64,000 nucleotides of DNA, taken from assembly GCA_030386295.1 (NCBI GenBank), contig JANQAO010000003.1, forward strand, positions 48,114-112,113, written 5' to 3'. The notes under the pieces are model-generated. The model was not told where the DNA came from. It saw only the letters and a list, made by a program, of their open reading frames with translations, and ran no database searches. Shown here piece after piece: positions 75-64,000 of this stretch (position 1 is the first letter of the stretch; each line of letters opens with the position of its first letter). The translations under genes were made by a program, and so were the position numbers. The DNA is from Candidatus Doriopsillibacter californiensis. Its GTDB lineage: Bacteria > Pseudomonadota > Gammaproteobacteria > Tethybacterales > Persebacteraceae.

Positions 75-1493
75 ATGGCCATTAACCTCACCATATCCGC
101 CGCCGCGAGAAGCTTACTAGTTGACCCCGCCAATACGGGCACTCGTGCAATTCGTATAACACACATCCAACTGGGAGAAGGCAGTAGAGTACCCGATGGC
201 ACCGAAGTAGGATTAGTTACAGCAGTAGCCACCGGTGATTTTGTCGGTGATGTCAACGCGCAAACGGGGGAGATAGCGGGCAGCGCTATATTTACCGGGG
301 CCGCGGCTATAGACGCCAGTGAGGTAGCGATTATCGCGCAAATAGAAGACTCAGAGTTTGTTTTTGCTTACTGGTCAACTGCGGCGGGCGAGGTTGAATT
401 TAGGAAATTAGCGGGTCAAGACGCCCGCCTAGCGCTCGCCGTCAGATTTGACACGACCCCGGCCGCCAGTATAACTTTTGGCCAAACAGCAGCGATCACA
501 TTCAATAATGAATTTGTCCGATTGGAGGACACGCCAAAGGAAATAGACCCCTGCATGGCAGTTGTGGGTAATCCGTCCGGTGATGGATTATTATTCACAG
601 ATAGCCTAGCGGCGAACACGTTATATTATTATGCGGCACTAACTACCCCCGTGGGCGCGGGTGGTAACACTCATGATATATTGGCTGTAATTTCGAGTGG
701 CTCAGGGTTAGAGCCATTAACAGCTACCAATGCTATAGAACACCTGCAATCATTAACGCCGCAAATAGGTCTAATCCCGCGGCCGTCAGCGACCGCCATA
801 AACGCCACTGATAAGTTGCGTGCGAAGTATATCGGCGTGATTAAAGCCCGCCTCTACGAGCCCAACGCCAGCCAAGATGGCTGGCAATTGTCAGCAACCT
901 TACCGGTATCGTCATCATCCGCAGCACCGGTAGAATTGGTGAGTTCTTATGGTAATGTAGTTTTAAGTGTGTCGCCTCCGGCAACAGCGATAAGCCGTCA
1001 AGTCGGCAGGGTAGTAGGATATGAGGACAGAGCGCAGGCGATAGCTATCATCGCAATAGACTTACCCGCGAGTGTACCGCAGGCGACAGACAGCAAGCAA
1101 GGCGTGATGCGATTTGCTACAGACACAGAGGTTTCGTCCCGCGAGAATGTGGCGGCTGCGGTGAGACCTTCATCGATGCTGCTGCCAGAACCAATAACGT
1201 TATGGTCAGGATCTAGCTTATCGGCGGCGAATATGTCAATAAGCGAGGGGGAATGGTTAGATTATTTCATGTTGGGTGTTGTGGCGGACCCCAACACTGA
1301 AAATACAGACGCGGTAGGCGGGGCGTACGCCATGCCGGGGTCGTTATTTAACGCAGGCAATCGGTTCTATATCGGCGAACGCGAAGAGCATGGTTATATC
1401 GAACGGCAGACGTCCACGACGTTCAGTTACACTGCGGCGACACGTAACTTTGATATCCCCTACATAGTGCTTTTTTGGGGCATTAAAAAATAA
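75..1493 (+). CDS. phage tail fibre-like protein (N-terminal tail-collar/fibre domain)
   Basis: 472 aa. The N-terminus (MAINLTISAAARSLLVDPANTGTRAIRITHIQLGEG...) follows the P2 gpH-type tail-fibre N-terminal pattern (TxAGxAxL...GxxxxIThxxxGxG...P). The rest is Ala/Thr/Ser/Gly-rich. The gene sits at the window edge and is followed by gene fragments. Confidence 0.45.
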   Translation: MAINLTISAAARSLLVDPANTGTRAIRITHIQLGEGSRVPDGTEVGLVTAVATGDFVGDVNAQTGEIAGSAIFTGAAAIDASEVAIIAQIEDSEFVFAYWSTAAGEVEFRKLAGQDARLALAVRFDTTPAASITFGQTAAITFNNEFVRLEDTPKEIDPCMAVVGNPSGDGLLFTDSLAANTLYYYAALTTPVGAGGNTHDILAVISSGSGLEPLTATNAIEHLQSLTPQIGLIPRPSATAINATDKLRAKYIGVIKARLYEPNASQDGWQLSATLPVSSSSAAPVELVSSYGNVVLSVSPPATAISRQVGRVVGYEDRAQAIAIIAIDLPASVPQATDSKQGVMRFATDTEVSSRENVAAAVRPSSMLLPEPITLWSGSSLSAANMSISEGEWLDYFMLGVVADPNTENTDAVGGAYAMPGSLFNAGNRFYIGEREEHGYIERQTSTTFSYTAATRNFDIPYIVLFWGIKK

Positions 1494-1955: not shown

Positions 1956-2615
1956 GTGTCATTTTCTGGTGATCCCCGAACGGAAAAACGGCGGAGCTAC
2001 ATGATGACGGAGCATCATTTGGCAGCTAACTTTACGGTTGTTAATGGTAAGGCGACTTTTATTCCCATGTTTTACGGTGCTGATCCGGGAGTTATCGGAA
2101 ATGGTGCTTATGCTGGGCATGATTTTTTATCTCACGAAGGCAATCGCGGTTTGGAATTGATTAACGCAATGAATAATGAACAGAAAAAAACAGCAATAGC
2201 TGCTGAAGAGGTTATGTTTAATAAATTTGGTGCTCTTGCGTTTCGTGGTCTGGGAACAAAAGATAAGCCGATTAAAGCGTAAGGAATCAGTGCAAAGAAC
2301 TTGTTTGATGAACAGCAAAAATTACTTTGGATATTGATTGAAGAATACGTGCGTAATGCTGATTTTGATGTGGCCAAAGCTCAATTGGAAAAAATACAAA
2401 AGGGAGGTCTTGATAAATTAAGTTTTATGTGGATGGGGCCGACTGACGGCGTTGAAAATATTTTTTATCAGATTTACGAACCTGCAATTTTAATTAATTT
2501 CGTTAACCAGCATACTGGGTTTGACTGGAATACCCTCCCTCACATTATTATCCGTGACTCGTTTAACGATTATGGTGAGAATTGGCTTCAGAGGCATATT
2601 TTAGAAGAGCACTAA
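1956..2615 (+). pseudogene. conserved hypothetical protein interrupted by an in-frame TAA (or two small ORFs)
   Basis: ORFs 1956-2282 and 2301-2615 lie in the same frame (both start coordinates are 0 mod 3). Only TAA at 2280-2282 separates them. The first starts with GTG and the second with TTG. Confidence 0.35.
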
Positions 2616-4933: not shown

Positions 4934-6135
4934 TTAGTTTGAATATTTCATATACCAATCGCAAAATTGTTTGCAGTGACGCTCGTCATCAGAAAAAACA
5001 CCTGGGCGATAGTAATCAGAAAGAGCTCCTTGAGTCATTGATTTACAAAGATTTTCGTCTTCAGTGTTTGTTACTTTCCACACACTAGTCATATGCTTAC
5101 GCTCAAAATCTTTTCCTTCTACTGCATCTTTATGCACAATCCAACTGGTATAAAGAACACACTTATATTCATTCAAAGGTAATATCCAATTAGTTGCAAT
5201 ATGGTCGCTGACAAAATGAATCCATCCGTTTGGATTGAACCAAAACGACAATGTTCCTTCGTACTCTTTGTGAGGACCTATCAACCTTGCGCTACACGGT
5301 TTTCCATCAAAACTAGTTGATTTATGGCCTTTCTTCATCGGATATCTGGCAATACGACAACTATCATGTGTATCAAACGCCTGTTCTTTCCACAGCAATC
5401 CTTTCGCCTCCCATTTTTTGGTTGCTTGGTTGAATATTTTTAAATATTCAAGGTCTTTGCTTCCATTAAAACTATTATCACTAAATAGCTTGAGTAGTCC
5501 CTTATTGTTAGCCTGACAATGACAGCATTCGCGATTGTTGAGCATTACACCAACCAATTAGCATCGATTTCTACACGCTCATGGTAGGCTAGTTTATATT
5601 CGTCTTTACCGAGGTGATAATGATGGATGTATGGATTAATCAGTTTTTGTACATTCGTCATGTCTTCTTTACATTGTTCATCATTTTCGAGACAAGCAAA
5701 CAATAAACCTTCAACTTCTTGAAGTGGAACACTATCAAGTTTGCAGGATTTTCCTGCATCGGAATACATAAATTCTTTAGGCATTCTTGCTGCATGGCGT
5801 AGGCTACCATCATTTAGGTTATAAGACCATTGATGGTTAGGGCAGACAATTGATGGTTAGGGCAGACAATTGATGAAGAACATTTGCCAACATTTTTTGT
5901 CACCAATCGAGCGCTTTAATGGGCACAGCGATTTACATGCATCGAATTACGCCATCAGTACCGTGTATTAAAAAATGAGAATTTTCTAGTAATTCAAAAG
6001 ATAAATAATTCATTTTTTCAGGTACATCTCCACGAGTTCCTACAAAAAACCATTTATTATGAAATAACTGTTTCATCCGGTTCGTATCAAACAACACTTC
6101 TTTAGGAAATGAATGTCCATAGCGGTATTCCTCTT
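4934..6135 (-). pseudogene. Rieske [2Fe-2S] non-haem iron oxygenase alpha subunit, inactivated
   Basis: The minus-strand translation gives Rieske box 1 (VNRCAH) followed by a stop at 5916-5918. Box 2 (IVCPNHQWSYNLNDGSL) is split by a 20-bp tandem duplication. The downstream ORFs 5545-5784 and 4934-5557 overlap out of frame and carry an ENxxExxH-like stretch (NNRECCHCQ). I count at least four lesions. Confidence 0.6.
5831..5870. repeat. perfect 2 x 20 bp tandem direct repeat (TGATGGTTAGGGCAGACAAT)
   Basis: Read directly. Copies at 5831-5850 and 5851-5870 are followed by a partial third copy (TGATG). The repeat lies inside the Rieske box-2 coding region. Since 20 bp is not a multiple of 3, it shifts the frame. 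Confidence 0.9.
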
Positions 6136-10232: not shown

Positions 10233-13100
10233 ATGAACAATCTCCCCGCTTTTGAAAAACACGCCAAACAAGAACACAAATATACTACCTGCTACATGTG
10301 TGCCTGCCGTTGTGGGGTGCGAGTAACGCTTGAAGATGGCAAAATTCGTTTTGTCCAAGGCAATCCCAATCATCCTGTCAATCGCGGGGTGCTATGCGGC
10401 AAAGGCAATGCCGCCATAATGAAGCAATATTCACCTGCTAAATTGCGAGCTCCTCTCATGCGCAAGCCGGGCAGTGAGCGTGGTAGCGGTGAATTTGTGG
10501 AAGTGTCGTGGGAACAAGCGATGGATACACTGACTCAGCGATTAGCTACCATTCGTGCTGACGATCCTAACAAACTGGCATTTTTTACAGGGCGTGACCA
10601 AATGCAAGCGCTCACTGGGTTATGGGCGACGCAGTTTGGTACACTCAATTGGGCAGCGCATGGTGGGTTTTGTTCGGTTAACATGGCAGCTGCTGGGTTG
10701 CTCACTCACGGTTATTCGTTTTGGGAATTTGGCGAACCTGATTGGGAGCAAACCAAATATTTTATGCTTTGGGGAGTGGCCGAAGATCACGCTTCCAACC
10801 CCATCAAAATTGGATTGAAAAAACTTAAAGAGCGCGGTGTCAAAATCGTTGCGATTAATCCAGTGCGCACAGGGTACCAGGCAATTGCCGATGAATGGGT
10901 GCCAATTACTCCCGGCGGTGACGGTGCTTTGGCACTGGCATTTATCCACGTATTACTGAGCGAACGGCGTATTGATGAGGAATTTTTAATTAGATACACC
11001 AATCTATCATGGTTGGTAGATGACGAAGGTCTTTTTGTACGCGACAGCGATGGTCGCCCATTGGCGTGGTGTTTAGAAAATAATGTGGTGATGGATGCGC
11101 AAAAATGTGACATTTGTCCGGCATTAGTTGGAGAATACACTCTTGCTGACGGCAGGTCTGTGCGTACTGCCATGACTTTGGCAATGACACAATATTTAGA
11201 TGAATCGAACTCGCCGGAAGCTATGACGGCGCACTGTGGTGTGCCGGCGGCAACTATTCGCCGCCTCGCGCGCGAGCTTGCCAATGTGGCTTTTTCACAG
11301 CCGGTGGTAGTGAATACGCCGTGGATAGATAGTGCCGGAAGGCAACACGAATCGTTTGTTGGGAGGCCAGTCTCTATGCACGCGATGCGTGGCGTGTCAG
11401 CGCATAGCAACGGCTTTCAAAGTTGTCGCGCTATTCACTTTTTGCAAGCGCTTTTGGGAAGTATGGATTGTCCGGGTGGGCACTTGGCTAAACCTCCGTA
11501 TCCGAAGCATCCACCAGCGGTACCCAAACCAGCTAACCGCAGTGCGTCTGGACAACCACTGTCGGCACCACCGCTTGGTATTCCGCGTGGACCGGAAGAT
11601 TTGGCGGTGGACGCCGCCGGTAAACCATTGCGGATTGATCACGCTTTTTCATGGGACGCGCCACTATCGGCACACGGTGCCATGCATATGGTTATTGCCA
11701 ACGCGGCTCGTAAAAATCCGTACGCCATTGATACTTTAATGATTTTTATGGCGAATCTGGCGTGGAATTCTTCCATGAATACGGACGGTACTGTCGCCAT
11801 GCTCACCGCCAAAGAAGACAACGGCGATTACACCATTCCATTTATTGTGGTGAGTGACGCTTTTCATTCCGAAATGGTGAATTATGCCGATTTGGTAATT
11901 CCTGACACTACTTATTTAGAGCGTCATGACACCATCTCTATGTTAGATCGTCCTATTTCCGAACCGCACGCTGCTTGTGACGCGATTCGCGCACCGGTGG
12001 TGGAGCCGCAATATAATACTCGTCCGTGGCAGGAGGTGTTGGTAGAGTTGGCAGGGCGATTGCAATTTCCAGTTTTTACCGGTGAAAATGGCGCGCCACG
12101 CTACGCTGATTACAAGGATTTTATTACTCGCTGGGAAAAAGCTCCTGGCATTGGTTTTTTGGCTGGTTGGCGGGGAGAAAACGGTGACGAACCTCTGCGG
12201 GGAGCGCCTAATCCTGACCAATGGCAGCGATATATTGATAATGAATGCTTTTTTCGGGAAGAGTTGCCACCATCAACGCGTTATTTTCGCTTTGCCAATC
12301 GTGATTATTTGCAATATGCCAAACGTGCCGGATGGACAGAAAGCGATGCTCCGATAGTGATTGAGCTATACAGCGAAACCCTGCGAAAATTTCAGCGCGC
12401 CGGAGAGGGAATGGGTGAACACGTTCCACCTGAAGAATACCAACGTCGCCGCTTGCGCGAGTATTGCCGACCGTTACCATTTTACTATCGTCCGTTAGAG
12501 CAAGCACGGCAGGATGGCGATAGTTATCCATTTTATGCCGTTACTCAACGACCTATGTTTATGTATCATTCGTGGGATTCTCAAAATGCGTGGTTGCGCC
12601 AAATTGCTGCTGACAACCATATTCACATTAATCGCACTCGTGCTGCTGAAATGGGTATTGCTGACGATGATTGGGTCTGGCTGTCGTCGCGCATTGGTAA
12701 AGTGGCGGCGCGCGCACGTTGTATGGACGGCGTAGCTGCTGATACGGTATGGACGTGGAATGCCATTGGTAAAGGTGCGGGTGCTTGGGGGCTGGCAGCA
12801 AACGCCAATGAGAGCGTGGAAGGATTTTTATTAAACAGCCTTATTGGTGAGTGGTTGCCGCCGGTAAACGATGAGTCACCGCTTAGTAACAGTGATCCAA
12901 TTACCGGTCAAGCGGCGTGGTATGACTTGCGAATCAATATTACTAAAATGCGCGCCGAGGAAATTACCGCTTTATCGCACTCGTCGGCATTTGCTACACT
13001 ACCCAATATGGCGCAAGAAAATGAGAAACCGTTGCGCTACATTGCGGGTTCTGCCGTTAATTTGCATCGCACATTTCTTGATACATTATTCCGTAAATAA
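10233..13100 (+). CDS. molybdopterin (Mo-bisPGD) oxidoreductase catalytic subunit, Psr/Phs/SoeA-like, no Tat signal
   Basis: 955 aa. The N-terminus carries a CYMCACRCG...C [4Fe-4S] motif (C-x2-C-x3-C-x27-C) and FVQGNPNHPVNRGVLCGKG. There is no twin-arginine leader. No FeS or NrfD-like partner genes lie downstream. Confidence 0.7.
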   Translation: MNNLPAFEKHAKQEHKYTTCYMCACRCGVRVTLEDGKIRFVQGNPNHPVNRGVLCGKGNAAIMKQYSPAKLRAPLMRKPGSERGSGEFVEVSWEQAMDTLTQRLATIRADDPNKLAFFTGRDQMQALTGLWATQFGTLNWAAHGGFCSVNMAAAGLLTHGYSFWEFGEPDWEQTKYFMLWGVAEDHASNPIKIGLKKLKERGVKIVAINPVRTGYQAIADEWVPITPGGDGALALAFIHVLLSERRIDEEFLIRYTNLSWLVDDEGLFVRDSDGRPLAWCLENNVVMDAQKCDICPALVGEYTLADGRSVRTAMTLAMTQYLDESNSPEAMTAHCGVPAATIRRLARELANVAFSQPVVVNTPWIDSAGRQHESFVGRPVSMHAMRGVSAHSNGFQSCRAIHFLQALLGSMDCPGGHLAKPPYPKHPPAVPKPANRSASGQPLSAPPLGIPRGPEDLAVDAAGKPLRIDHAFSWDAPLSAHGAMHMVIANAARKNPYAIDTLMIFMANLAWNSSMNTDGTVAMLTAKEDNGDYTIPFIVVSDAFHSEMVNYADLVIPDTTYLERHDTISMLDRPISEPHAACDAIRAPVVEPQYNTRPWQEVLVELAGRLQFPVFTGENGAPRYADYKDFITRWEKAPGIGFLAGWRGENGDEPLRGAPNPDQWQRYIDNECFFREELPPSTRYFRFANRDYLQYAKRAGWTESDAPIVIELYSETLRKFQRAGEGMGEHVPPEEYQRRRLREYCRPLPFYYRPLEQARQDGDSYPFYAVTQRPMFMYHSWDSQNAWLRQIAADNHIHINRTRAAEMGIADDDWVWLSSRIGKVAARARCMDGVAADTVWTWNAIGKGAGAWGLAANANESVEGFLLNSLIGEWLPPVNDESPLSNSDPITGQAAWYDLRINITKMRAEEITALSHSSAFATLPNMAQENEKPLRYIAGSAVNLHRTFLDTLFRK

Positions 13101-56272: not shown

Positions 56273-57277
56273 TTATTTTGTTAACCCCAGTACTTCTTCC
56301 CAGAGTGCTCGCGGCAAGGTAATGCCGTGTCGTGTGGCAAATTCTCGAGTGGTGCGACTATTTTCACCGGGTAGGCGGGTGTTGGGCGCTGCTTCTGCGA
56401 TGCGACAAAAAAGCCGCTCCATCTGTGCGTGAAAATTTTCCTGCTGCGGAGCAATTGCAATAAGAAGTTGACCGATGTATGGCGGCGTACCACTATCGTC
56501 AAAAAATGATGAGGCGTCAAAAGCTAGATTACCACCGGCCAGCGGCGCACACAGTATTTCTACCATCAGCGCGAGTGCGGAGCCTTTGGCCTCTCCCATT
56601 GGCAGCAGAGCGCCTGCAAGAGCTGCTGTTGCATCGGTGGTAGGTTGCCCAGTTGCGTCTACCGCCAAGCCCTGAGCGATGGATTCGCCTCGCTGTTTGG
56701 ACGCCATGACTTTGCCTCGCGCTATTTTGGATAGCGATAAATCGACAAATAATGGTGGGGCGTTTTTGCGTGGCGCGGCAAAAGCAATAGGATTAGTACC
56801 ATAAACGGCAGCGCCAACAGGCCACGGCGCCATGGCTTTGGGAGAATTGCTAAACGCCAATGCCAGTAGTCCAGCGGCAGCTAGTTGTTCTGCCCAATAC
56901 CCCATGCGCCCACTGTGATGTGAATGATTCACGGCGGCACAAGCAATGCCAGCAGCGGGTGCAGTTTCTATTAATTTACGAACAGCCAATTCTAGTGCAG
57001 GATAAGCAAAGCCGGAAGCAGCGTCTATTTGCACGTAACCCGTTTTTAATTGTGTGGCAGTAGGTATGGCATTACCGCAAATCTTGCCAGTACGTACCTG
57101 TGCCACATAAGCCTGTAGCCGTCGTAGACCATGTCCTTGCTGACCGCATGCATCGGCGTCGGCAAGAGCCATTGCGGTTGATTTTGCCGCAACGTCGCTA
57201 ACGCCGGCAGTAGTAAGCACGTTTTGTATTGTGACGGTTAACTCAGTTACTGAAACGATAATGTTATCGTCACTCAT
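56273..57277 (-). CDS. Ldh_2-family (malate/L-lactate/sulfolactate) dehydrogenase, ComC-like
   Basis: 334 aa. The N-terminal half (GQQGHGLRRLQAYV, NHSHHSGRMGYWAE) is typical of type-2 malate/L-lactate dehydrogenases. It is the last gene of the TRAP-dehydrogenase cluster. Confidence 0.75.
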   Translation of the reverse strand: MSDDNIIVSVTELTVTIQNVLTTAGVSDVAAKSTAMALADADACGQQGHGLRRLQAYVAQVRTGKICGNAIPTATQLKTGYVQIDAASGFAYPALELAVRKLIETAPAAGIACAAVNHSHHSGRMGYWAEQLAAAGLLALAFSNSPKAMAPWPVGAAVYGTNPIAFAAPRKNAPPLFVDLSLSKIARGKVMASKQRGESIAQGLAVDATGQPTTDATAALAGALLPMGEAKGSALALMVEILCAPLAGGNLAFDASSFFDDSGTPPYIGQLLIAIAPQQENFHAQMERLFCRIAEAAPNTRLPGENSRTTREFATRHGITLPRALWEEVLGLTK

Positions 57278-57293
57278 TTATTTATGGTGCAAT

Positions 57294-58265
57294 TTATGGA
57301 ATTAGTACAATTTTAGGCGCTGCAACATTGCCGGCCAATAAGTCAGCAAAAGCTCGCGCACCGTCACTTAGCGGGCGCGTTTCAAACCAATCTAGTGCCC
57401 CAAGTTTACCTTTGCCCATCCATTCTACTGTTTCTTTGAATTCGGTCATGGTGTACGTATAAGAACCAACTAAAACAATTTCTTGTAGCGTGAGGCGACG
57501 CATATCAAAACCACCATCAGCTGACGCCAAGCCAATATGCACGACCACGCCGCCTGGTGCGGTTATGGTAGATGCCTGCCGTCGTGTTTGTTCATGTCCA
57601 ACGGCATCAATCACCACGTCCATCGCTGTTGGCAGAGCTTCGGGAGTAACAATATGGAAGTTTCCCGTTTTTTCTAGGGCTTTTCGCCTTCGTGGATTAT
57701 TGTCAGCAATCCATACTTCTTTGGCACCACGTGCAGTTAGTGACAAGGCTGACGCCAAACCAATGGCGCCGCCGCCCAACACTGCTGTTTGACACTCGGC
57801 TAGCGAGCGACGGCTATGCACCACGCCTAAACCGGCAGTATGATGACCGCAAGCAAGTGGTTCTGCTAGCGACCCTTGCTGTAAAGATAATGAATTCGGT
57901 AGTGGTACGATATTTTGTGGCGGTATGGCTAGTTGCTCAGCAAATGCACCGGCGCGTGGTGGCATTGAAATAATTTGCCGTTGAAGGCATAGATTGGAAC
58001 GTCCAGCGCGGCAATAATCACAAGTTTCACATACTACTAGCGGATTAACGGTAACACGAGCGCCACTGGGAAGCATTCCCGCCGCTTCGTGTCCTAGAAT
58101 AAGTGGTGGTGGGCGGCGCTCGTCGTGTCCCAAATAAGCATGCATGTCTGAACCGCAAATGCCGACGGCATTAACATCAATAAGGGTATTGTCGTTATCT
58201 GCAATGGAATTAGGTTGTTCACAAAAACGAAGATTTTGTGAAGATTCATACAGAAGTGCTTTCAT
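57294..58265 (-). CDS. zinc-dependent medium-chain alcohol dehydrogenase (HpsP-like position)
   Basis: The GICGSDMHAYLGHD...ILGHEAAG zinc-ADH signature, and a structural-zinc Cys cluster (CETCDYCRAGRSNLC). Confidence 0.75.
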   Translation of the reverse strand: MKALLYESSQNLRFCEQPNSIADNDNTLIDVNAVGICGSDMHAYLGHDERRPPPLILGHEAAGMLPSGARVTVNPLVVCETCDYCRAGRSNLCLQRQIISMPPRAGAFAEQLAIPPQNIVPLPNSLSLQQGSLAEPLACGHHTAGLGVVHSRRSLAECQTAVLGGGAIGLASALSLTARGAKEVWIADNNPRRRKALEKTGNFHIVTPEALPTAMDVVIDAVGHEQTRRQASTITAPGGVVVHIGLASADGGFDMRRLTLQEIVLVGSYTYTMTEFKETVEWMGKGKLGALDWFETRPLSDGARAFADLLAGNVAAPKIVLIP

Positions 58266-58431
58266 GGTGCGCTCTTTTTGGATATAGACAGGCTCATTTT
58301 TTTGTCAAGGAAGAATTTAATGTTAACAGGAAAAACTTTAATCCTATACGGGCGATGTTAATAATTGTATCGGAATTATTTTATTATTTTTGTAAAAATA
58401 TGTTGGTATTAGTTAATTTAAATAAAAGAAG

Positions 58432-59223
58432 TTACTTTGCCAAAAAACCACCGTCTACAGGTAATAACAGCCCGGTCAAATATGCCGCAGCTGAGGAAGC
58501 TAAAAATACCGCGGCACCATCCATATCAGAAAGTGCCCCATTGCGTCCCAATAGGGTTGATGCCGCCAATTTTTCTATTAATTCTTTATCTTCAAAGACA
58601 ATGTCAGTCATTTCACTGGGGAAAAACCCGGGAATGAGCGCATTGACGGTAATGCCGCGCTCGCCCCACGCTCGTGCTAGTAGCCGCGTAAGTTGCGCTA
58701 CACCGCCTTTGGAAGCGCCATAGGCAGCATCTCCTAGTCCTGCGCGCAGCGATTGCAAAGAACCGACATTGATGATAGCACCGCCTTTATCCATACCGGT
58801 TGCTAATTCTCGTGATAAAAAAAATGGGGCGCCTAAATTAACAGCCAACGTTTTTTCCCAATTATCTAGGGTGATTGCTGATGTGGATTCGGCAGGGTCA
58901 GATGAAGATCGCAAATTAACGCCGGCGGCGTTTACTAAAATAGACGGTGCGCCAAAACACGCTGCTGCTTCCACCGCCGTTTGCGGAATGCTTCTAGTAT
59001 CAGACAAATCTGCCGTAACTACTGCAGCTTGGTTGCCTCCACAAACATTAATAATTTCAGCCGCTGCATCATCAAGCTTGTTTTTACGCCGTCCAATGAG
59101 TACTGTGCGAGCTCCAGCTTGTGCCAGTGCCAGACCGATACGTCGCCCAATGCCAGTGCCGCCGCCGGTGATAACTGCCACCCGTCCGTGAAGACCGAAT
59201 AGGTTATTAATGAAATTGTTCAT
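58432..59223 (-). CDS. short-chain dehydrogenase/reductase (HpsO-like position)
   Basis: TGGGTGIGR in the Rossmann fold, the NAAG motif, and a YGASK catalytic tetrad region. Confidence 0.75.
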   Translation of the reverse strand: MNNFINNLFGLHGRVAVITGGGTGIGRRIGLALAQAGARTVLIGRRKNKLDDAAAEIINVCGGNQAAVVTADLSDTRSIPQTAVEAAACFGAPSILVNAAGVNLRSSSDPAESTSAITLDNWEKTLAVNLGAPFFLSRELATGMDKGGAIINVGSLQSLRAGLGDAAYGASKGGVAQLTRLLARAWGERGITVNALIPGFFPSEMTDIVFEDKELIEKLAASTLLGRNGALSDMDGAAVFLASSAAAYLTGLLLPVDGGFLAK

Positions 59224-59238
59224 AGCGGCTGCTTTCAG

Positions 59239-60564
59239 TTAGCTGTTATCGGACAAGTTTTCTGATTGTAGAATAAATTTTTCATCGGGAAACCATTTCG
59301 CCAAGCGCAAATCCGCAGTGCGGGCGTGTCCTTCCATGCCTTCTAATCGCGAAATACGTGCCGTAGCGGCACCAATATCGCGATTGGCTTCGCGCGTCAT
59401 GCGTTGCCAAGTAACGGTTTTCATGAATTTTGCGACTGATAGACCACCAGTGTAACGTCCCGCGCCTTTTGTAGGCAAAATATGATTGGGTCCAGACACT
59501 TTGTCACCGTAAGCCACAGTGGTTTCTTCACCCAAAAAGAGAGAACCGTAATTTATAAGACGAGATTGCCACCAATCCAAGTTAGCGCAGTGTACTTCTA
59601 GATGTTCAGCCGCATAACGGTCAGATAGCACTGCCGCGTCTTCTTGCGAATCGGCTACAGCCACTTCACCATATTCTTGCCACGATTGCATGGCGTGAGA
59701 GCGGTTAGGTTCTGGTAATGCTTCTATCATCTGTGGTACCAATTGCATAACCTTATTTGCTAATGAAGATGACAATGATATAAGCCACGCTGGTGAGTTG
59801 GGGCCGTGTTCTGCCTGACCTACCAAGTCGCAGGCGACGATTTCAGCATCTGCCGTATCGTCTGCAATAACAAGAATTTCTGTCGGACCAGCAAACATGT
59901 CAATGCCGGTAAATCCATACAATAACCGTTTGGCCTCGGCTACATATTGGTTGCCAGGACCGGCCAGCACATCAGCAGAGTGACCAGAAAACAAGCCAAA
60001 GGCCATAGCCGCAATGCCTTGCACACCACCTAAATTCAAGATATGATCAGCGCCGCATAAATCTAACGTGTATAAAATTGCCGGATGCATACCGCCGTGC
60101 GCATTGCTAGGTGGTGAGCAGGCGATTATGTTTTTTACACCTGCTTCTTTGGCTGTGCCCACGCTCATAATCGCCGATGCTACATGTGCGTAGCGGCCAC
60201 CCGGGACATAACAACCGGCGGTTTGTACGGGCACATGACGATGACCGGCGGTTACTCCCGGGTGTAATTCGGTTTGTGCATTGGGTAACCATGATTTTTG
60301 GGCGCGGGCAAAAGTGCACACTTGCTCACGGGCAAAAGCGATATCATTACGAATTGATTGCGGTACCCGCTTAGCAGCGGCAGCCCGAGCTTCAGGAGAA
60401 ACGAGAATGTCACCATCCCAGCCGTCAAAATTACTGGTATAACGTCGTGCAGCTTCTTCGCCACCGCTTTCAATATCGTCTAGCATAGCGCGTACTTTGT
60501 CTCGCACATCACTTTCGCCGCTAGAAGCAGATTTTGGAGCTTTTTTTAAGAATTCAATAGACAT
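59239..60564 (-). CDS. histidinol dehydrogenase-family enzyme (sulfopropanediol 3-dehydrogenase HpsN-like)
   Basis: 441 aa with a HisD fold (GPGNQYVAEAK, QAEHGPNS). It is not in a his operon but sits inside a TRAP-transporter/dehydrogenase cluster. Confidence 0.8.
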   Translation of the reverse strand: MSIEFLKKAPKSASSGESDVRDKVRAMLDDIESGGEEAARRYTSNFDGWDGDILVSPEARAAAAKRVPQSIRNDIAFAREQVCTFARAQKSWLPNAQTELHPGVTAGHRHVPVQTAGCYVPGGRYAHVASAIMSVGTAKEAGVKNIIACSPPSNAHGGMHPAILYTLDLCGADHILNLGGVQGIAAMAFGLFSGHSADVLAGPGNQYVAEAKRLLYGFTGIDMFAGPTEILVIADDTADAEIVACDLVGQAEHGPNSPAWLISLSSSLANKVMQLVPQMIEALPEPNRSHAMQSWQEYGEVAVADSQEDAAVLSDRYAAEHLEVHCANLDWWQSRLINYGSLFLGEETTVAYGDKVSGPNHILPTKGAGRYTGGLSVAKFMKTVTWQRMTREANRDIGAATARISRLEGMEGHARTADLRLAKWFPDEKFILQSENLSDNS

Positions 60565-60581
60565 ATATTTCCCTTTCTACT

Positions 60582-61922
60582 TTAATTATTGTTGTTACTT
60601 GTACCGTAAATGTACTCTGGTAGCCATAGCGCAATTTGCGGGAAAATGATAATCAGAGCTAAGCCGATTAGCTGGATAATCATAAATTGAATCATGCCAT
60701 AGTAAATATCTTTTAAAGGCCATTCCGGTACGACGCCTTTTAAGAAGTATGCTGATAGGGCTACCGGTGGTGACAGCCACGCAGTTTGTAGATTAACGGC
60801 AACCAAAATACCAAACCATAGCAAGTTAATGTCTAATTGTTCAACGAGTGGTATCAAAATTGGCACGATAATCAACACAATTGGAACCCACTCCAGTGGC
60901 CAGCCCAGTAAAAATATTAATGCCATTATGAGCATCAATGTTCCCATTTGGGACAACTCCAAACTGAGTAATAATTCGGTCAGCATTATTGGTGTTCCCA
61001 AACGAGAAAATACCGCACCAAAAAAATTGGATGCTGCCACCAATAATAAGATTAGTGCTGAAATTTCCAAAGTCTTAATCAGCGCATCGTTCATTTTTTT
61101 CCAGGTTAATCGGCGGTATGCTAGCCCTAGTAATAAAGCGCCAAAGGCACCACAGCCAGCTCCCTCGGTTGGCGTGGCAAAACCTAACAAAATACTACCC
61201 AACGCGGAGAACACCAGTAACGATGGTGGCACTAGGCCAAGAAAAAATTCACGCCAAATTTCTCCCATGTTTTCAGCTCGTTCAGCTACTGGCATAGCAG
61301 GACCTAACTTGGGATTAATAATACAGCGACCAACTGCATATAAGGCATATAGTACCGCCATCATGATTCCAGGAATAATGGCGGCAGCAAACAAATCAGT
61401 TACTGGTACTTCAAGTACAGGACCCATTACTACCAGCATGATGGATGGTGGAATAAGAATGCCTAGCGTTCCGCCTGCGGTAATAGTGCCAGCTGTTAAC
61501 CGTATATCGTAGTTGGCACGATTCATTGTTTTTGCTGCCATGATGCCTAAAATCGTCACCGAAGCACCAACAATACCAGTAGCGGCGGCGAAAATAGTAG
61601 AGACAAATAATACAGCTAGGTAGAGTGCACCTCGAACTCTAGACAGCATTAGCCGTACGGCCTCAAATAGCCGTTCCATAAGTCCGGCCTGTTCCATTAG
61701 GATACCCATAAACACAAATAGCGGTACTGCGGCTAATGTCTGTTCCAACATGACGCTGTTAAACTGCAGAGTCATTAAATAAAAAACGACTTTACCGAAT
61801 CCGAGATAACCAAAAACAAAACCTAAAAAGAGCAGAGTAAAAGAAATTGGAAAGCCGATAAAAATTGCAAAGAGCATTACTCCTAGCATAACGAGACCGA
61901 GTATTTCTGGGCTCATGGCCAA
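60582..61922 (-). CDS. TRAP transporter large permease (DctM family)
   Basis: 446 aa with about 12 TM helices and DctM similarity along the full length. Confidence 0.9.
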   Translation of the reverse strand: MAMSPEILGLVMLGVMLFAIFIGFPISFTLLFLGFVFGYLGFGKVVFYLMTLQFNSVMLEQTLAAVPLFVFMGILMEQAGLMERLFEAVRLMLSRVRGALYLAVLFVSTIFAAATGIVGASVTILGIMAAKTMNRANYDIRLTAGTITAGGTLGILIPPSIMLVVMGPVLEVPVTDLFAAAIIPGIMMAVLYALYAVGRCIINPKLGPAMPVAERAENMGEIWREFFLGLVPPSLLVFSALGSILLGFATPTEGAGCGAFGALLLGLAYRRLTWKKMNDALIKTLEISALILLLVAASNFFGAVFSRLGTPIMLTELLLSLELSQMGTLMLIMALIFLLGWPLEWVPIVLIIVPILIPLVEQLDINLLWFGILVAVNLQTAWLSPPVALSAYFLKGVVPEWPLKDIYYGMIQFMIIQLIGLALIIIFPQIALWLPEYIYGTSNNNN

Positions 61923-62521
61923 ATCCCTCTTGTCATCGCATAATAACTTTTAAGGGCTTCTGATACGCCCTGAATGAGCAACAGCAAGACCCCAATAGGC
62001 ATGGCGCTACGTGCTGGTGCGAGGTAAGGCATCCACGCCGAATCCATGCCACGTTCTCCGCTTTTCCACGCATCAAAAGCATAATCTGAGCATACCCATA
62101 AAAAGATAAGCATGCCGGGAAAGTACAACATAAAATAAAGAAAAAAGTCTACTGTCCCCTGCGTGCGTGGAGACCATAGACGGTATAAAAAGTCGGCGCG
62201 AATATGCACTCCACGCATTAGCGCATAGCCCGAGCCCAACATAAACATAGCACCATAAATCATGCGACTAAGGTCGTATGCCCACATGGTAGGAGCAATG
62301 AAAACGTAGCGGACAAATACCTCATACACCATGGCGGTGAATAACGGTACTGTCATCCAGCAAACAATTTTCCCCACGCGCAAGCTAAATTTGTCAATGC
62401 TGACAATGAGGCGTGCAGCTAGCGGCGACATATCATCGGGAAGACCAGTAGATGAGTCTCGCCGTTCGGCGATTAGTTCATCAACTAAATCAATTTCTGG
62501 TTCATCAGTTTTTTGATTCAT
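61913..62521 (-). CDS. TRAP transporter small permease (DctQ family)
   Basis: 202 aa with four TM helices. It overlaps the dctM start by 10 bp. Confidence 0.8.
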   Translation of the reverse strand: MNQKTDEPEIDLVDELIAERRDSSTGLPDDMSPLAARLIVSIDKFSLRVGKIVCWMTVPLFTAMVYEVFVRYVFIAPTMWAYDLSRMIYGAMFMLGSGYALMRGVHIRADFLYRLWSPRTQGTVDFFLYFMLYFPGMLIFLWVCSDYAFDAWKSGERGMDSAWMPYLAPARSAMPIGVLLLLIQGVSEALKSYYAMTRGIWP

Positions 62522-62542
62522 GACTCACACTCTCTCTTGTGA

Positions 62543-62577
62543 CAAAAAAAATACCCGCCGCAAAAAAGACGGCGGGT
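62543..62577 (-). terminator. intra-operon hairpin plus T-run between the TRAP binding-protein gene and the permease genes
   Basis: On the plus strand, AAAAAAAATACCCGCCGCAAAAAAGACGGCGGGT. On the minus strand this is an 8-bp perfect stem (ACCCGCCG/CGGCGGGT) followed by ATTTTTTTT. It lies between the dctP stop (62603) and the dctQ start (62521). Confidence 0.5.
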
Positions 62578-62602
62578 AAATAAAGAAAATATTGTTTCTT
62601 TA

Positions 62603-63706
62603 TTATTTTTTGCTTTCCACGTAGGCATTGCCAAGATTGGCATTGGTGGTTTGTGCACCAGCCCAAAATGGAACTGCTACATCGGCAAAGTCACGCATAG
62701 ATGTCCATACTTTGAGGAAGAATGGATTTTCTTTCTTGTGCTTGTCAAAAATGTTACTTACCGCATTCATGTACTCCGGAAAATAATCTTTGGGAGTATC
62801 ATGCAACACCACTCCGTGATTTTCGGTGAGGTCTTTGAGGGCCTTGCCGTTTTCGTAAATACGATACGCCATGGCACGCATCAGAGAAGCATCAGCAGCA
62901 ACTTCCATTGCCCGTTGGTTTTCCGGAGAGATGCTGTTCCACACATCTTTATTGATGTACATGTCAGCATTTACGACCACTTGGTGTAGACCTTGCAGAT
63001 AATAATTTTTGAGGATTTTTTGAAAGCCAAAAACACTATCCGGTTTGGGGCAGCACCACTCAGCAGCGTCAATCGTACCTTTTTCAAGAGCTGGTAAGAT
63101 GTCACCACCACCCATGGCTACGGCTGCTACGCCGATATCGTTATACGCTTGCCCTGGAATTCCTGGAGGAGCACGAAAACGATACTTACGAAAATCATCC
63201 ATGCTGTTAATTGGCTCTTTGAACCAGCCTAGTGCTTCAGGACCAACCGGCTGCAACATTATTCCTTTAACATTGACGCCCATTTCGTCCCACAGTTCGT
63301 TGTACAGCTCTTTGCCGCCACCAAACATGTACCACGACACCCAAGCAATGTTGTCAATGCCCAAGCCGGCACCTGCCGCTGGTGAACCAAACAACATTGT
63401 TGCCGGATGTTTGCCTGACCAGTAATGCGTCCAAGCAAAGCCGCCTTCAACCAACCCTTTGTCTACAGCGTCAAGCGTTTCTTTGACGCCAACGATTGCG
63501 CCAGCTGGCAAAATTTCAATTTCAACTTCGCCGTTGGTGAGAGCTTTGACATTGTCCGCATAATCGCGTAGCATCGTAACTTCATCCGCTTTAGCAGAAA
63601 TTACCGATTGAACTCGGATTTTTGTTTTTGCCGCTGCCGTTAAAGGCATGGCAACTGCTGCTACCGCAAGCGCGACAGTAACACTTTTCATTAAAGAATG
63701 ATTCAT
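62603..63706 (-). CDS. TRAP transporter substrate-binding protein (DctP family, SBP family 7)
   Basis: 367 aa with a signal peptide. The DctP-type fold matches the mannitol/chloroaromatic/organosulfonate-type TRAP binding proteins. Confidence 0.85.
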   Translation of the reverse strand: MNHSLMKSVTVALAVAAVAMPLTAAAKTKIRVQSVISAKADEVTMLRDYADNVKALTNGEVEIEILPAGAIVGVKETLDAVDKGLVEGGFAWTHYWSGKHPATMLFGSPAAGAGLGIDNIAWVSWYMFGGGKELYNELWDEMGVNVKGIMLQPVGPEALGWFKEPINSMDDFRKYRFRAPPGIPGQAYNDIGVAAVAMGGGDILPALEKGTIDAAEWCCPKPDSVFGFQKILKNYYLQGLHQVVVNADMYINKDVWNSISPENQRAMEVAADASLMRAMAYRIYENGKALKDLTENHGVVLHDTPKDYFPEYMNAVSNIFDKHKKENPFFLKVWTSMRDFADVAVPFWAGAQTTNANLGNAYVESKK

Positions 63707-63738: not shown

Positions 63739-63761
63739 AAATCTCCCCAAATAGGAGATTT
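63739..63761. promoter_or_regulatory. perfect 8-bp inverted repeat AAATCTCC-N7-GGAGATTT in the dctP 5' leader
   Basis: Read directly. It lies 32 nt upstream of the dctP start codon, just before the AAGGAGA ribosome-binding site on the minus strand. It could be an operator or an RNA hairpin. Confidence 0.35.
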
Positions 63762-64000
63762 TTCTTATTGTAGCCTATTTGAAACAAACTAGAAGCAAAT
63801 TAGCACAATAAATGGGCTGCGTAATAGTTTAAATCAATATGAATTGATAAATTTAAGGAGCAACACGGAGAAAAATTAGCGGCTTCAAATAGCTAAATCG
63901 CAACTTTCTAAATAAATTAATTCCATCATGTTTTACTATTATTCTGTAGCGCAAATTTATTTGTGTGTGATTGTGGAATGATTAAATATTCAATTTCAAA

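Follow-up and report, generated by a model that had tools for sequence, protein, structure and literature searches.

An intact operon predicted to serve uptake and oxidation of 2,3-dihydroxypropane-1-sulfonate in Candidatus Doriopsillibacter californiensis

We analyzed a stretch of 64,000 nucleotides from Candidatus Doriopsillibacter californiensis (contig JANQAO010000003.1, positions 48,114 to 112,113; hereafter the window). Close to its end lies an intact operon that very probably encodes high-affinity uptake of 2,3-dihydroxypropane-1-sulfonate (DHPS) and its NAD(P)-dependent oxidation. The operon joins a transporter of the tripartite ATP-independent periplasmic (TRAP) type to four dehydrogenases. 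A first-pass annotation, made from the letters alone, had recognized in it the catabolic genes for DHPS (hps) together with a TRAP importer. This assignment held, since each of the four enzymes fits its characterized or cluster-embedded counterpart better than the alternatives, in the case of the SDR partly by its position in the operon. The genome stems from sorted skin bacteria of the nudibranch Doriopsilla fulva, specimen Df01, and belongs to the order Tethybacterales, which its describers placed in the Gammaproteobacteria (PMC10262491).

Gene layout and the four dehydrogenases

The open reading frame (ORF) listing revealed a run of seven packed ORFs on the minus strand (56273-63706), in the order dctP, dctQ, dctM, a HisD-like gene, a short-chain dehydrogenase/reductase (SDR), a zinc-dependent alcohol dehydrogenase (Zn-ADH) and an Ldh_2 gene. 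In Pfam searches every product exceeded the curated cut-off by a wide margin, the families being DctP, DctQ, DctM, Histidinol_dh, adh_short, ADH_N/ADH_zinc_N and Ldh_2. Both the order and the spacings given in the first-pass annotation were thereby confirmed. The features of the locus are the following.

62603..63706, minus strand: dctP, TRAP substrate-binding protein (SBP), 367 amino acids, with signal peptide (Pfam DctP, 112.7 bits)
62552..62578, minus strand: terminator-like hairpin between dctP and dctQ, 10-bp stem, 7-nt loop
61913..62521, minus strand: dctQ, TRAP small membrane subunit, 202 amino acids (Pfam DctQ, 73 bits)
60582..61922, minus strand: dctM, TRAP large permease, 444-446 amino acids (Pfam DctM, 252 bits; TIGR00786, 279 bits, over cut-off)
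59239..60564, minus strand: predicted hpsN, HisD-like (R)-DHPS 3-dehydrogenase (560 bits to CpHpsN, PDB 8v35)
58432..59223, minus strand: hpsO-type SDR, predicted DHPS dehydrogenase, 263 amino acids (46% identity to CpHpsO)
58266..58431, minus strand: AT-rich spacer between hpsO and hpsP, 166 bp, possible internal promoter
57294..58265, minus strand: predicted hpsP, Zn-dependent medium-chain (MDR) DHPS dehydrogenase, 323 amino acids (344 bits to DsHpsP, PDB 8wwd)
56273..57277, minus strand: comC-like Ldh_2 dehydrogenase, 334 amino acids (Pfam Ldh_2, 313 bits)
63739..63761, minus strand: inverted repeat with 8-bp arms and a 7-nt loop, 33-55 nt 5' of the dctP start codon

From dctP to the Ldh_2 gene the intergenic distances are 81 bp, an overlap between dctQ and dctM, 17, 15, 166 and 16 bp. 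The dctM start called by the JGI (61916) reduces the overlap with dctQ to 4 bp. The window corresponds to the reverse complement of positions 60245-124244 of the 140,619-bp JGI contig Ga0416805_05. An NCBI entry from 'Candidatus Persebacteraceae bacterium Df01', whose contig with this operon measures 455,906 bp, matches DctP with 100% identity. Across six independent assemblies the operon DNA is 99.8-100% identical and is therefore no assembly artefact. All seven ORFs are full length, unlike decayed genes nearby. A gene cluster of this composition is no chance arrangement.

In a PDB search the HisD-like protein scored 560 bits against the solved HpsN of Cupriavidus pinatubonensis (CpHpsN, 8v35) and 500 bits against 8wwe, which carries the depositors' label '(R)-DHPS dehydrogenase', whereas the best true HisD reached 234 bits. 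The HisD-like protein shares 59% identity with the HpsN annotated in C. pinatubonensis and with that of a Rhodobacteraceae plasmid, and its score against PF00815 (Histidinol_dh) is 432 bits. HpsN proteins are distinguished from HisD by a G-R-Y-A/S-H motif, the final histidine of which (His126) binds zinc or the sulfonate; HisD has G-S-A-P-L at this position (PMC11382572). The alignment placed GRYAH at residues 123-127 of the HisD-like protein, with the histidine retained as His127. In CpHpsN, zinc is bound by Gln248, His251, Asp352 and His411, catalysis depends on Glu318 and His319, and Lys353 contacts the sulfonate (PMC11382572). All of these residues are kept, namely as Q250, H253, D354 and H413 (zinc), E320 and H321 (catalysis) and K355 (sulfonate), and His361 is likewise conserved. 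A scan of GTDB genomes with the protein returned best matches of 60% identity from Polynucleobacter/Burkholderiaceae and no close relative. We conclude that the protein is, as predicted from motif and residues, HpsN (EC 1.1.1.308), which would oxidize (R)-DHPS to (R)-sulfolactate in a four-electron reaction dependent on Zn and NAD. It sides with HpsN and not with the true histidinol dehydrogenases, as the first-pass annotation had proposed.

The Zn-ADH matched HpsP of Dinoroseobacter shibae (DsHpsP, 8wwd) with 344 bits, while the next PDB entry reached 95 bits. It is 44% identical to CpHpsP and 47% to the orthologue on plasmid pSC52_2 of the Rhodobacteraceae strain SC52, and it keeps His59, Glu60 and Glu135, which correspond to the mutagenesis-tested residues His59, Glu60 and Glu139 of DsHpsP. 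By these criteria the Zn-ADH is a predicted HpsP orthologue. The SDR is 46% identical to the annotated CpHpsO. Its GSLQS...YGASK segments align with CpHpsO and with the SC52 orthologue, and the Ser-x-Gln and Tyr-x3-Lys elements of Ruegeria pomeroyi HpsO (RpHpsO) are retained, including the glutamine two residues past the serine that selects the enantiomer in HpsO. The gene lies directly 3' of hpsN, as it does in 14 related metagenome loci as well as in genome and plasmid loci, and loci of Cupriavidus, Polynucleobacter, Paracoccus and Rhodobacteraceae, along with many from metagenomes, share the order hpsN-hpsO-hpsP. An assignment of the SDR as a putative HpsO is supported by these data. It is partly positional, because the best PDB match of the SDR (236 bits) is an entry labelled gluconate 5-dehydrogenase (6le3), with RpHpsO (8wwf) at 215 bits.

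For the Ldh_2 protein, the top plasmid matches (46-51% identity) are 'Ldh family oxidoreductase' genes of Paracoccus plasmids. On pTAV3 of P. versutus and on a P. seriniphilus plasmid, the Ldh gene forms a pair with a hydroxyacid dehydrogenase and a tripartite tricarboxylate transporter (TTT), and on these two plasmids the pair adjoins hpsNOP, suyAB and sulfite or sulfate exporter genes. A pairing of this kind with SuyAB is the SlcC/ComC-SuyAB sulfolactate module of the literature. In the records of the other two top plasmid matches, hpsN is about 8 kb away. The Ldh protein encoded in the hps-suyAB cluster of SC52 is 44% identical. The best relatives in a large protein database, the match list of which left out the identical protein although the JGI calls it on several contigs, are about 50% identical and, where the JGI gives a name, are called (2R)-3-sulfolactate dehydrogenase. 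Given the gap in this list, a protein missing from it may still exist. The top match sits in a sulfoquinovose cluster of the sulfo-Embden-Meyerhof-Parnas (sulfo-EMP) type, together with a PALP enzyme, a 2-hydroxyacid dehydrogenase (SlcC) and an aldehyde dehydrogenase. A role as ComC-type (R)-sulfolactate/sulfopyruvate oxidoreductase is thus well supported by gene context for the Ldh_2 protein. The earlier proposal of a ComC-type sulfolactate dehydrogenase agrees with these neighborhoods, since the closest relatives sit in sulfolactate and sulfoquinovose clusters.

The TRAP transporter and its relatives

The first-pass annotation had likened DctPQM to the HpsKLM transporters of hps loci in Roseobacter and Cupriavidus. 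An hps-linked TRAP importer is indeed present, but it is no orthologue of Roseobacter HpsKLM, and Cupriavidus does not belong in the comparison, as its importer is HpsU, a carrier of the major facilitator superfamily (MFS). The P, Q and M subunits share 22%, 24% and 26% identity with the HpsKLM-type system of SC52, and the SBP barely matched the solved HpsK of R. pomeroyi (RpHpsK, PDB 24gc; E=6e-4, 22 bits). Identities of more than about 40% are expected within a cluster of such SBPs (Barber et al. 2026). Because of the low identities and the marginal RpHpsK match, we regard the transporter as belonging to a different SBP lineage from HpsKLM.

Very close relatives of the SBP are abundant, with 75-87% identity in the protein database. 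A metagenome scan with the SBP yielded 80 loci whose SBPs were 68-82% identical, and 61 loci had enough flanking sequence to be informative. In 33 of the 61, hpsN, hpsO, hpsP or suyB was found beside the transporter, the SBPs being 68-84% identical; where at least 6 kb could be read to either side, the count was 8 of 16. One locus has the order LacI-dctPQM-hpsN-hpsO-hpsP (L022), another suyAB-dctPQM-hpsN...hpsP (L019). The hps-linked loci encode DctQ proteins 60-66% and DctM proteins 75-86% identical to those of the window. Close relatives of the SBP thus do adjoin sulfonate genes, the reverse of what the first-pass annotation had named as grounds for giving up its reading.

A low-G+C dctPQM-hpsN locus encodes an SBP that the NCBI names as Pelagibacteraceae and that is 73% identical to that of the window. 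By the comparison of these proteins and their neighbors, the SBP belongs to a second, Pelagibacteraceae-containing TRAP family linked to hps genes. SAR11_0864, a TRAP SBP of HTCC1062, was detected first as an isethionate binder and needs Ca2+ for isethionate binding (Clifton et al. 2024). It binds isethionate and both DHPS enantiomers and was placed in a cluster of its own, which is associated with hpsNOP and diverges from RpHpsK by more than 60% (Barber et al. 2026). The SBP of the window may well fall into this SAR11_0864-type cluster (cluster 3 of Barber et al. 2026) and would then be a candidate DHPS/isethionate binder.

The TRAP proteins are more conserved than the enzymes. Identity to the closest relative is at most 87% for DctP and 86% for DctM, compared to at most 66% for HpsN, 54% for HpsP and 56% for the ComC-like protein. 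A later acquisition of the transporter genes by transfer, or tighter constraint on them, could account for this difference. The closest SBP (87%) is held by a population of genomes of about 2 Mb (L020 and L021, circular genomes of about 1.95 Mb in the ENA, and L109). In genomes of the L020/L021 type this SBP is followed by an HpsP-like Zn-ADH and two more TRAP systems, and no hpsN lies nearby. A similar genome of about 2 Mb carries a ComC-like gene directly after rplU-rpmA-obg-proB-ispB, and the same gene order occurs in the window at about 43.4-46.9 kb.

Proposed pathway, its alternatives and regulation

From the gene identities, active-site residues and neighborhoods described above we infer the substrates, the direction of the ComC-like reaction, the desulfonation route and the regulation as follows. 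The periplasmic DctP-type protein would capture DHPS, and possibly isethionate, for import by DctQM at the expense of an ion gradient. HpsO and HpsP would handle the two enantiomers. On this step the literature is split between interconversion via sulfoacetol and oxidation at C3 to sulfolactaldehyde; the first-pass annotation had adopted the racemization via sulfoacetol, which is one of two published models, whereas Liu et al. 2024 reported that HpsO and HpsP oxidize C3 of R- and S-DHPS to sulfolactaldehyde. HpsN would then convert (R)-DHPS to (R)-sulfolactate in two NAD-dependent steps, and the ComC-like Ldh_2 protein would interconvert (R)-sulfolactate and 3-sulfopyruvate. Cleavage of the C-S bond would be encoded elsewhere in the genome, by ComDE and Xsc, by transamination and CuyA, or by an unlinked SuyAB, which are the three known fates of sulfopyruvate and sulfolactate. 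The sulfite set free would feed the sulfite-oxidizing and SOX systems reported for this genome.

No SuyAB homologue was found by tblastn in the window or in the 10 kb past its end, and remnants of suyAB, hpsR or hpsU were likewise absent from these 10 kb at E values of up to 10. A Pfam survey of the window and both 10-kb flanks revealed no UxaA-family (SuyAB) protein, no TPP enzyme (Xsc, ComDE), no PALP enzyme (CuyA), no SlcC-type enzyme (2-Hacid_dh/NAD_binding_2), no TauE/SafE protein, no transcription factor and no aldehyde dehydrogenase except PutA. These searches bear out the earlier remark that the window holds no SuyAB, Xsc, CuyA or regulator. The suggestion to look beyond position 64000 for a divergent regulator, suyAB, xsc, cuyA or comDE gave none within 10 kb. 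Since no lyase lies within the window and its flanks, mineralization of DHPS is unproven.

Several observations weigh against the assignment of the operon to DHPS, and they are considered here together with the explanations they would favor. Automatic annotation would describe an ordinary histidinol-dehydrogenase or polyol operon with a mannitol- or dicarboxylate-type TRAP transporter: the HisD-like protein passes the cut-off of the hisD model TIGR00069 with 420 bits, RefSeq calls most of its homologues hisD, and the JGI labels the SBP family 'mannitol/chloroaromatic compound transport'. The hisD labels and the model pass are an annotation trap and no evidence for histidine biosynthesis. GRYAH stands in place of GSAPL, no HisD reaches half the similarity seen with solved HpsN, CpHpsN is inactive on histidinol (PMC11382572) and no other his gene lies nearby. 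The motif and the HpsN similarity effectively refute this explanation, which we consider to have a negligible chance of being correct. A further explanation is that the transporter serves mainly isethionate, sulfolactate or an alpha-keto or hydroxy carboxylate, with DHPS as a minor substrate or taken up by another route. The solved structures closest to the SBP are TakP-like binders of alpha-keto acids and lactate (E ~1e-35), not of sulfonates, SAR11_0864 was found initially through isethionate, and about half of the close SBP relatives lack a nearby hps gene, some of them adjoining only a Zn-ADH. On the other hand, the transporter shares a transcription unit with hpsN at a distance of 17 bp, the same TRAP type lies directly 5' of hpsN in many unrelated lineages, and SAR11_0864 is reported to bind both DHPS enantiomers. 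A transporter mainly for other substrates therefore appears rather unlikely to us. The gluconate 5-dehydrogenase label on the top PDB match of the SDR also speaks against its assignment as HpsO. The Ldh_2 protein, finally, might be a piperideine/pyrroline-2-carboxylate reductase, an ureidoglycolate or a malate dehydrogenase that is merely co-transcribed. Its closest solved relative is the piperideine-2-carboxylate reductase DpkA (190 bits, against 116 for Methanocaldococcus jannaschii ComC), it is at most about 56% identical to any database protein, and the NCBIfam model for L-sulfolactate dehydrogenase (NF040650) gave 179 bits at a cut-off of 500. As we take this model to represent the archaeal coenzyme-M ComC, a score below its cut-off says little against a bacterial catabolic ComC. 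The four best plasmid matches and the lower-ranked SC52 match (H39) lie in hps/slc/suy clusters, the best database match lies in the sulfoquinovose-SlcC-PALP cluster, and the gene begins 16 bp after hpsP, so that we give a different function of the Ldh_2 protein a small chance.

The lack of a desulfonating enzyme, an SlcC partner, a sulfolactaldehyde dehydrogenase, a sulfite exporter and a regulator in the window and its 10-kb flanks bears on how far the pathway proceeds. In a truncated pathway, oxidation of DHPS would stop at sulfolactate or sulfopyruvate, with a gain in reducing power (three NAD(P)H per DHPS), and the sulfonate would be excreted, the lyase having never been present or having been lost in gene decay. 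This would fit the absence of SuyAB, Xsc, ComDE and CuyA from about 84 kb of readable sequence, the presence of suyAB inside or beside the hps genes of comparable clusters, and the disrupted genes nearby. However, 84 kb are a small part of the genome, and the lyase genes are unlinked to hpsN in several characterized DHPS degraders. Moreover, the genome is described as 99% complete and carries sulfite oxidation, sulfite reduction and complete SOX genes (PMC10262491), extensive sulfite handling that suits a sulfite-releasing pathway, and the intactness of the seven genes and their identity between assemblies suggest selection. We consider truncation unlikely. Because unlinked lyases occur in known degraders and the genome is reported to handle sulfite, we favor, as a judgement, a complete pathway with distant lyase genes as the probable arrangement. 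That the genome lacks any canonical sulfolactate, sulfoacetaldehyde or cysteate lyase seems improbable; in that case the operon would be a host-associated cross-feeding step or would lead to an undescribed desulfonation from sulfopyruvate. Cross-feeding, if true, would mean that DHPS is taken in and sulfopyruvate or sulfolactate is passed out to the host or other microbes.

Upstream of dctP lies an AT-rich gap of 635 bp that reaches past position 64000, followed by an MBL-fold gene, a gene of the AcuI/YhdH family and putA. In the LacI-containing loci L022 and L030, the palindrome TGTAAGCGCTTACA is found 5' of dctP. This HpsR-type operator was not found upstream of dctP in the window, even with three mismatches allowed. 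A perfect palindrome, TTGTGAT-AACTG-ATCACAA, is located 340-358 bp 5' of dctP (L001:9643-9661, on the contig about 64 bp past the window end); it is CRP/FNR-like, but the spacing between TGTGA and TCACA is 7 nt. The inverted repeat in the leader (63739..63761) would be either a 5'-leader structure or a protein-binding site. As the operator TGTAAGCGCTTACA is absent and other palindromes are present, regulation differs from that of the clusters described before and is perhaps constitutive or exerted in trans. An Rfam scan of the operon and its leader gave nothing at threshold. The internal terminator suspected after dctP in the first-pass annotation corresponds to a strong G+C-rich hairpin (62578-62552; 10 pairs, 7 of them G-C, 7-nt loop) followed by eight T (TTTTTTTT). 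Judged from its structure and position, this hairpin probably acts as an attenuator and would shift expression toward the binding protein relative to the permease.

A promoter scan that included the hpsO-hpsP spacer returned weak promoter-like matches, no more than expected from shuffled sequence. This spacer is also where two further assemblies of the organism break, L003 and L005 diverging or ending at window positions 58328 and 58307. While L005 ends there, L003 (15379-16604) runs into a SIR2-family gene instead of hpsP-comC. The breaks could be amplification chimeras of the sorted-cell DNA or a true strain variant without hpsP and comC.

The upstream Zn-ADH and MBL genes were considered as operon members and judged unrelated: the former encodes an acrylyl-CoA reductase of the AcuI/YhdH family (396 bits, over the subfamily cut-off), the latter a generic MBL-fold protein. 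Both lie on the operon strand (L001:7421-9366). AcuI is linked to acrylate and dimethylsulfoniopropionate (DMSP) detoxification in marine bacteria.

The gene decay noted in the first-pass annotation agrees with three disrupted genes in the vicinity of the operon. A DUF3500 gene is broken into pieces of 93 and 104 amino acids, and a ring-hydroxylase gene has about half its length, its Ring_hydroxyl_A fragment counting 203 amino acids (window 2001-2615 and 4934-5545). A purD-like gene, likewise halved, is represented by a GARS_A fragment of 191 amino acids on the contig past the window end (L001:262-837). A Mu-like prophage abuts the window start (GemA, Mu Gp27, Mu portal, Gp36, baseplate J and tail P2_I; L107:1-10000). 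The first ORF of the window (75-1493), which has no Pfam match, comes after the phage tail genes and may be a tail fibre. A molybdopterin oxidoreductase of 955 amino acids is encoded at 10233-13100 on the plus strand. Its best match is the thiosulfate reductase PhsA, below threshold; the alignment begins past the Tat signal expected of PhsA, and no gene for an Fe-S or membrane subunit is adjacent. Judging by its sequence, it might be a cytoplasmic SoeA-like sulfite dehydrogenase, relevant to sulfonate-derived sulfite.

Comparison with known DHPS systems

DHPS is among the most abundant organosulfur compounds derived from phytoplankton. Free-living Roseobacters, SAR11 and Burkholderiales of soil make up most of its known consumers. 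The text of the genome description (PMC10262491) contains no mention of sulfonate, DHPS or TRAP. A literature search found no paper joining Tethybacterales with sulfolactate, and the searchable papers on Tethybacterales do not mention sulfonate use. An intact and apparently unregulated DHPS operon in a skin symbiont of a nudibranch, with its reduced genome, would thus add sulfonate use to the metabolism of this order. Its genes are of a kind easily overlooked: hpsN is routinely mislabelled hisD, and the SBP family is mislabelled 'mannitol/chloroaromatic transporter'.

The operon resembles the hpsRNOUP-suyAB cluster of C. pinatubonensis (Mayer et al. 2010; PMC11382572) in the order hpsN-hpsO-...-hpsP and in its enzyme families, with identities of 59%, 46% and 44%. 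In Cupriavidus there is a divergent LacI-type regulator, HpsR; the MFS importer HpsU is encoded between hpsO and hpsP, and suyAB follows immediately 3'. In contrast, the operon of the window has a TRAP importer and the additional ComC-like gene, and no regulator, LacI-type operator or suyAB at the locus. The operon also shares its layout with the plasmid pSC52_2: there, TRAP(P,Q,M)-hpsN-hpsO-hpsP is followed by an Ldh_2 gene, and the enzymes are 44-59% identical. The SC52 order TRAP-hpsN-hpsO-hpsP-suyA-suyB-Ldh is that of the window except for the suyAB genes between hpsP and Ldh, and SC52 additionally has a regulator and a gene of a sulfate-exporter family. The transporter sets the operon apart from the Roseobacter HpsKLM systems (e.g., Ruegeria pomeroyi) and the SC52 type, its proteins being 22-26% identical to those of SC52.

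With the SlcC/ComC-SuyAB module known from Chromohalobacter salexigens and Paracoccus spp., the operon shares the Ldh_2 protein, 46-51% identical to the Paracoccus plasmid Ldh. Unlike that module, the locus has no SlcC-type dehydrogenase, TTT transporter, SuyAB or sulfite exporter. As SlcC and SuyAB are absent at the locus, the ComC-like protein is not half of a racemase feeding SuyAB, unless those genes lie elsewhere. The Pelagibacteraceae-containing TRAP family has the same COG4663-type SBP and recurs beside hpsNOP and suyAB. In its low-G+C loci L100 and L104 (the latter of Pelagibacteraceae) neither hpsO nor a close ComC was detected, unlike in the window.

Every component of the operon comes from a described family, and its overall logic is that of the published DHPS pathway, which our finding leaves unchanged. 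Particular to this case are the absence of an adjacent regulator or lyase, the nudibranch symbiont as host, and the combination of a Pelagibacteraceae-type TRAP transporter, probably of the SAR11_0864 type, with hpsNOP and a lone comC. The operon would thereby provide a host-associated, enzyme-linked example of the second TRAP family associated with DHPS.

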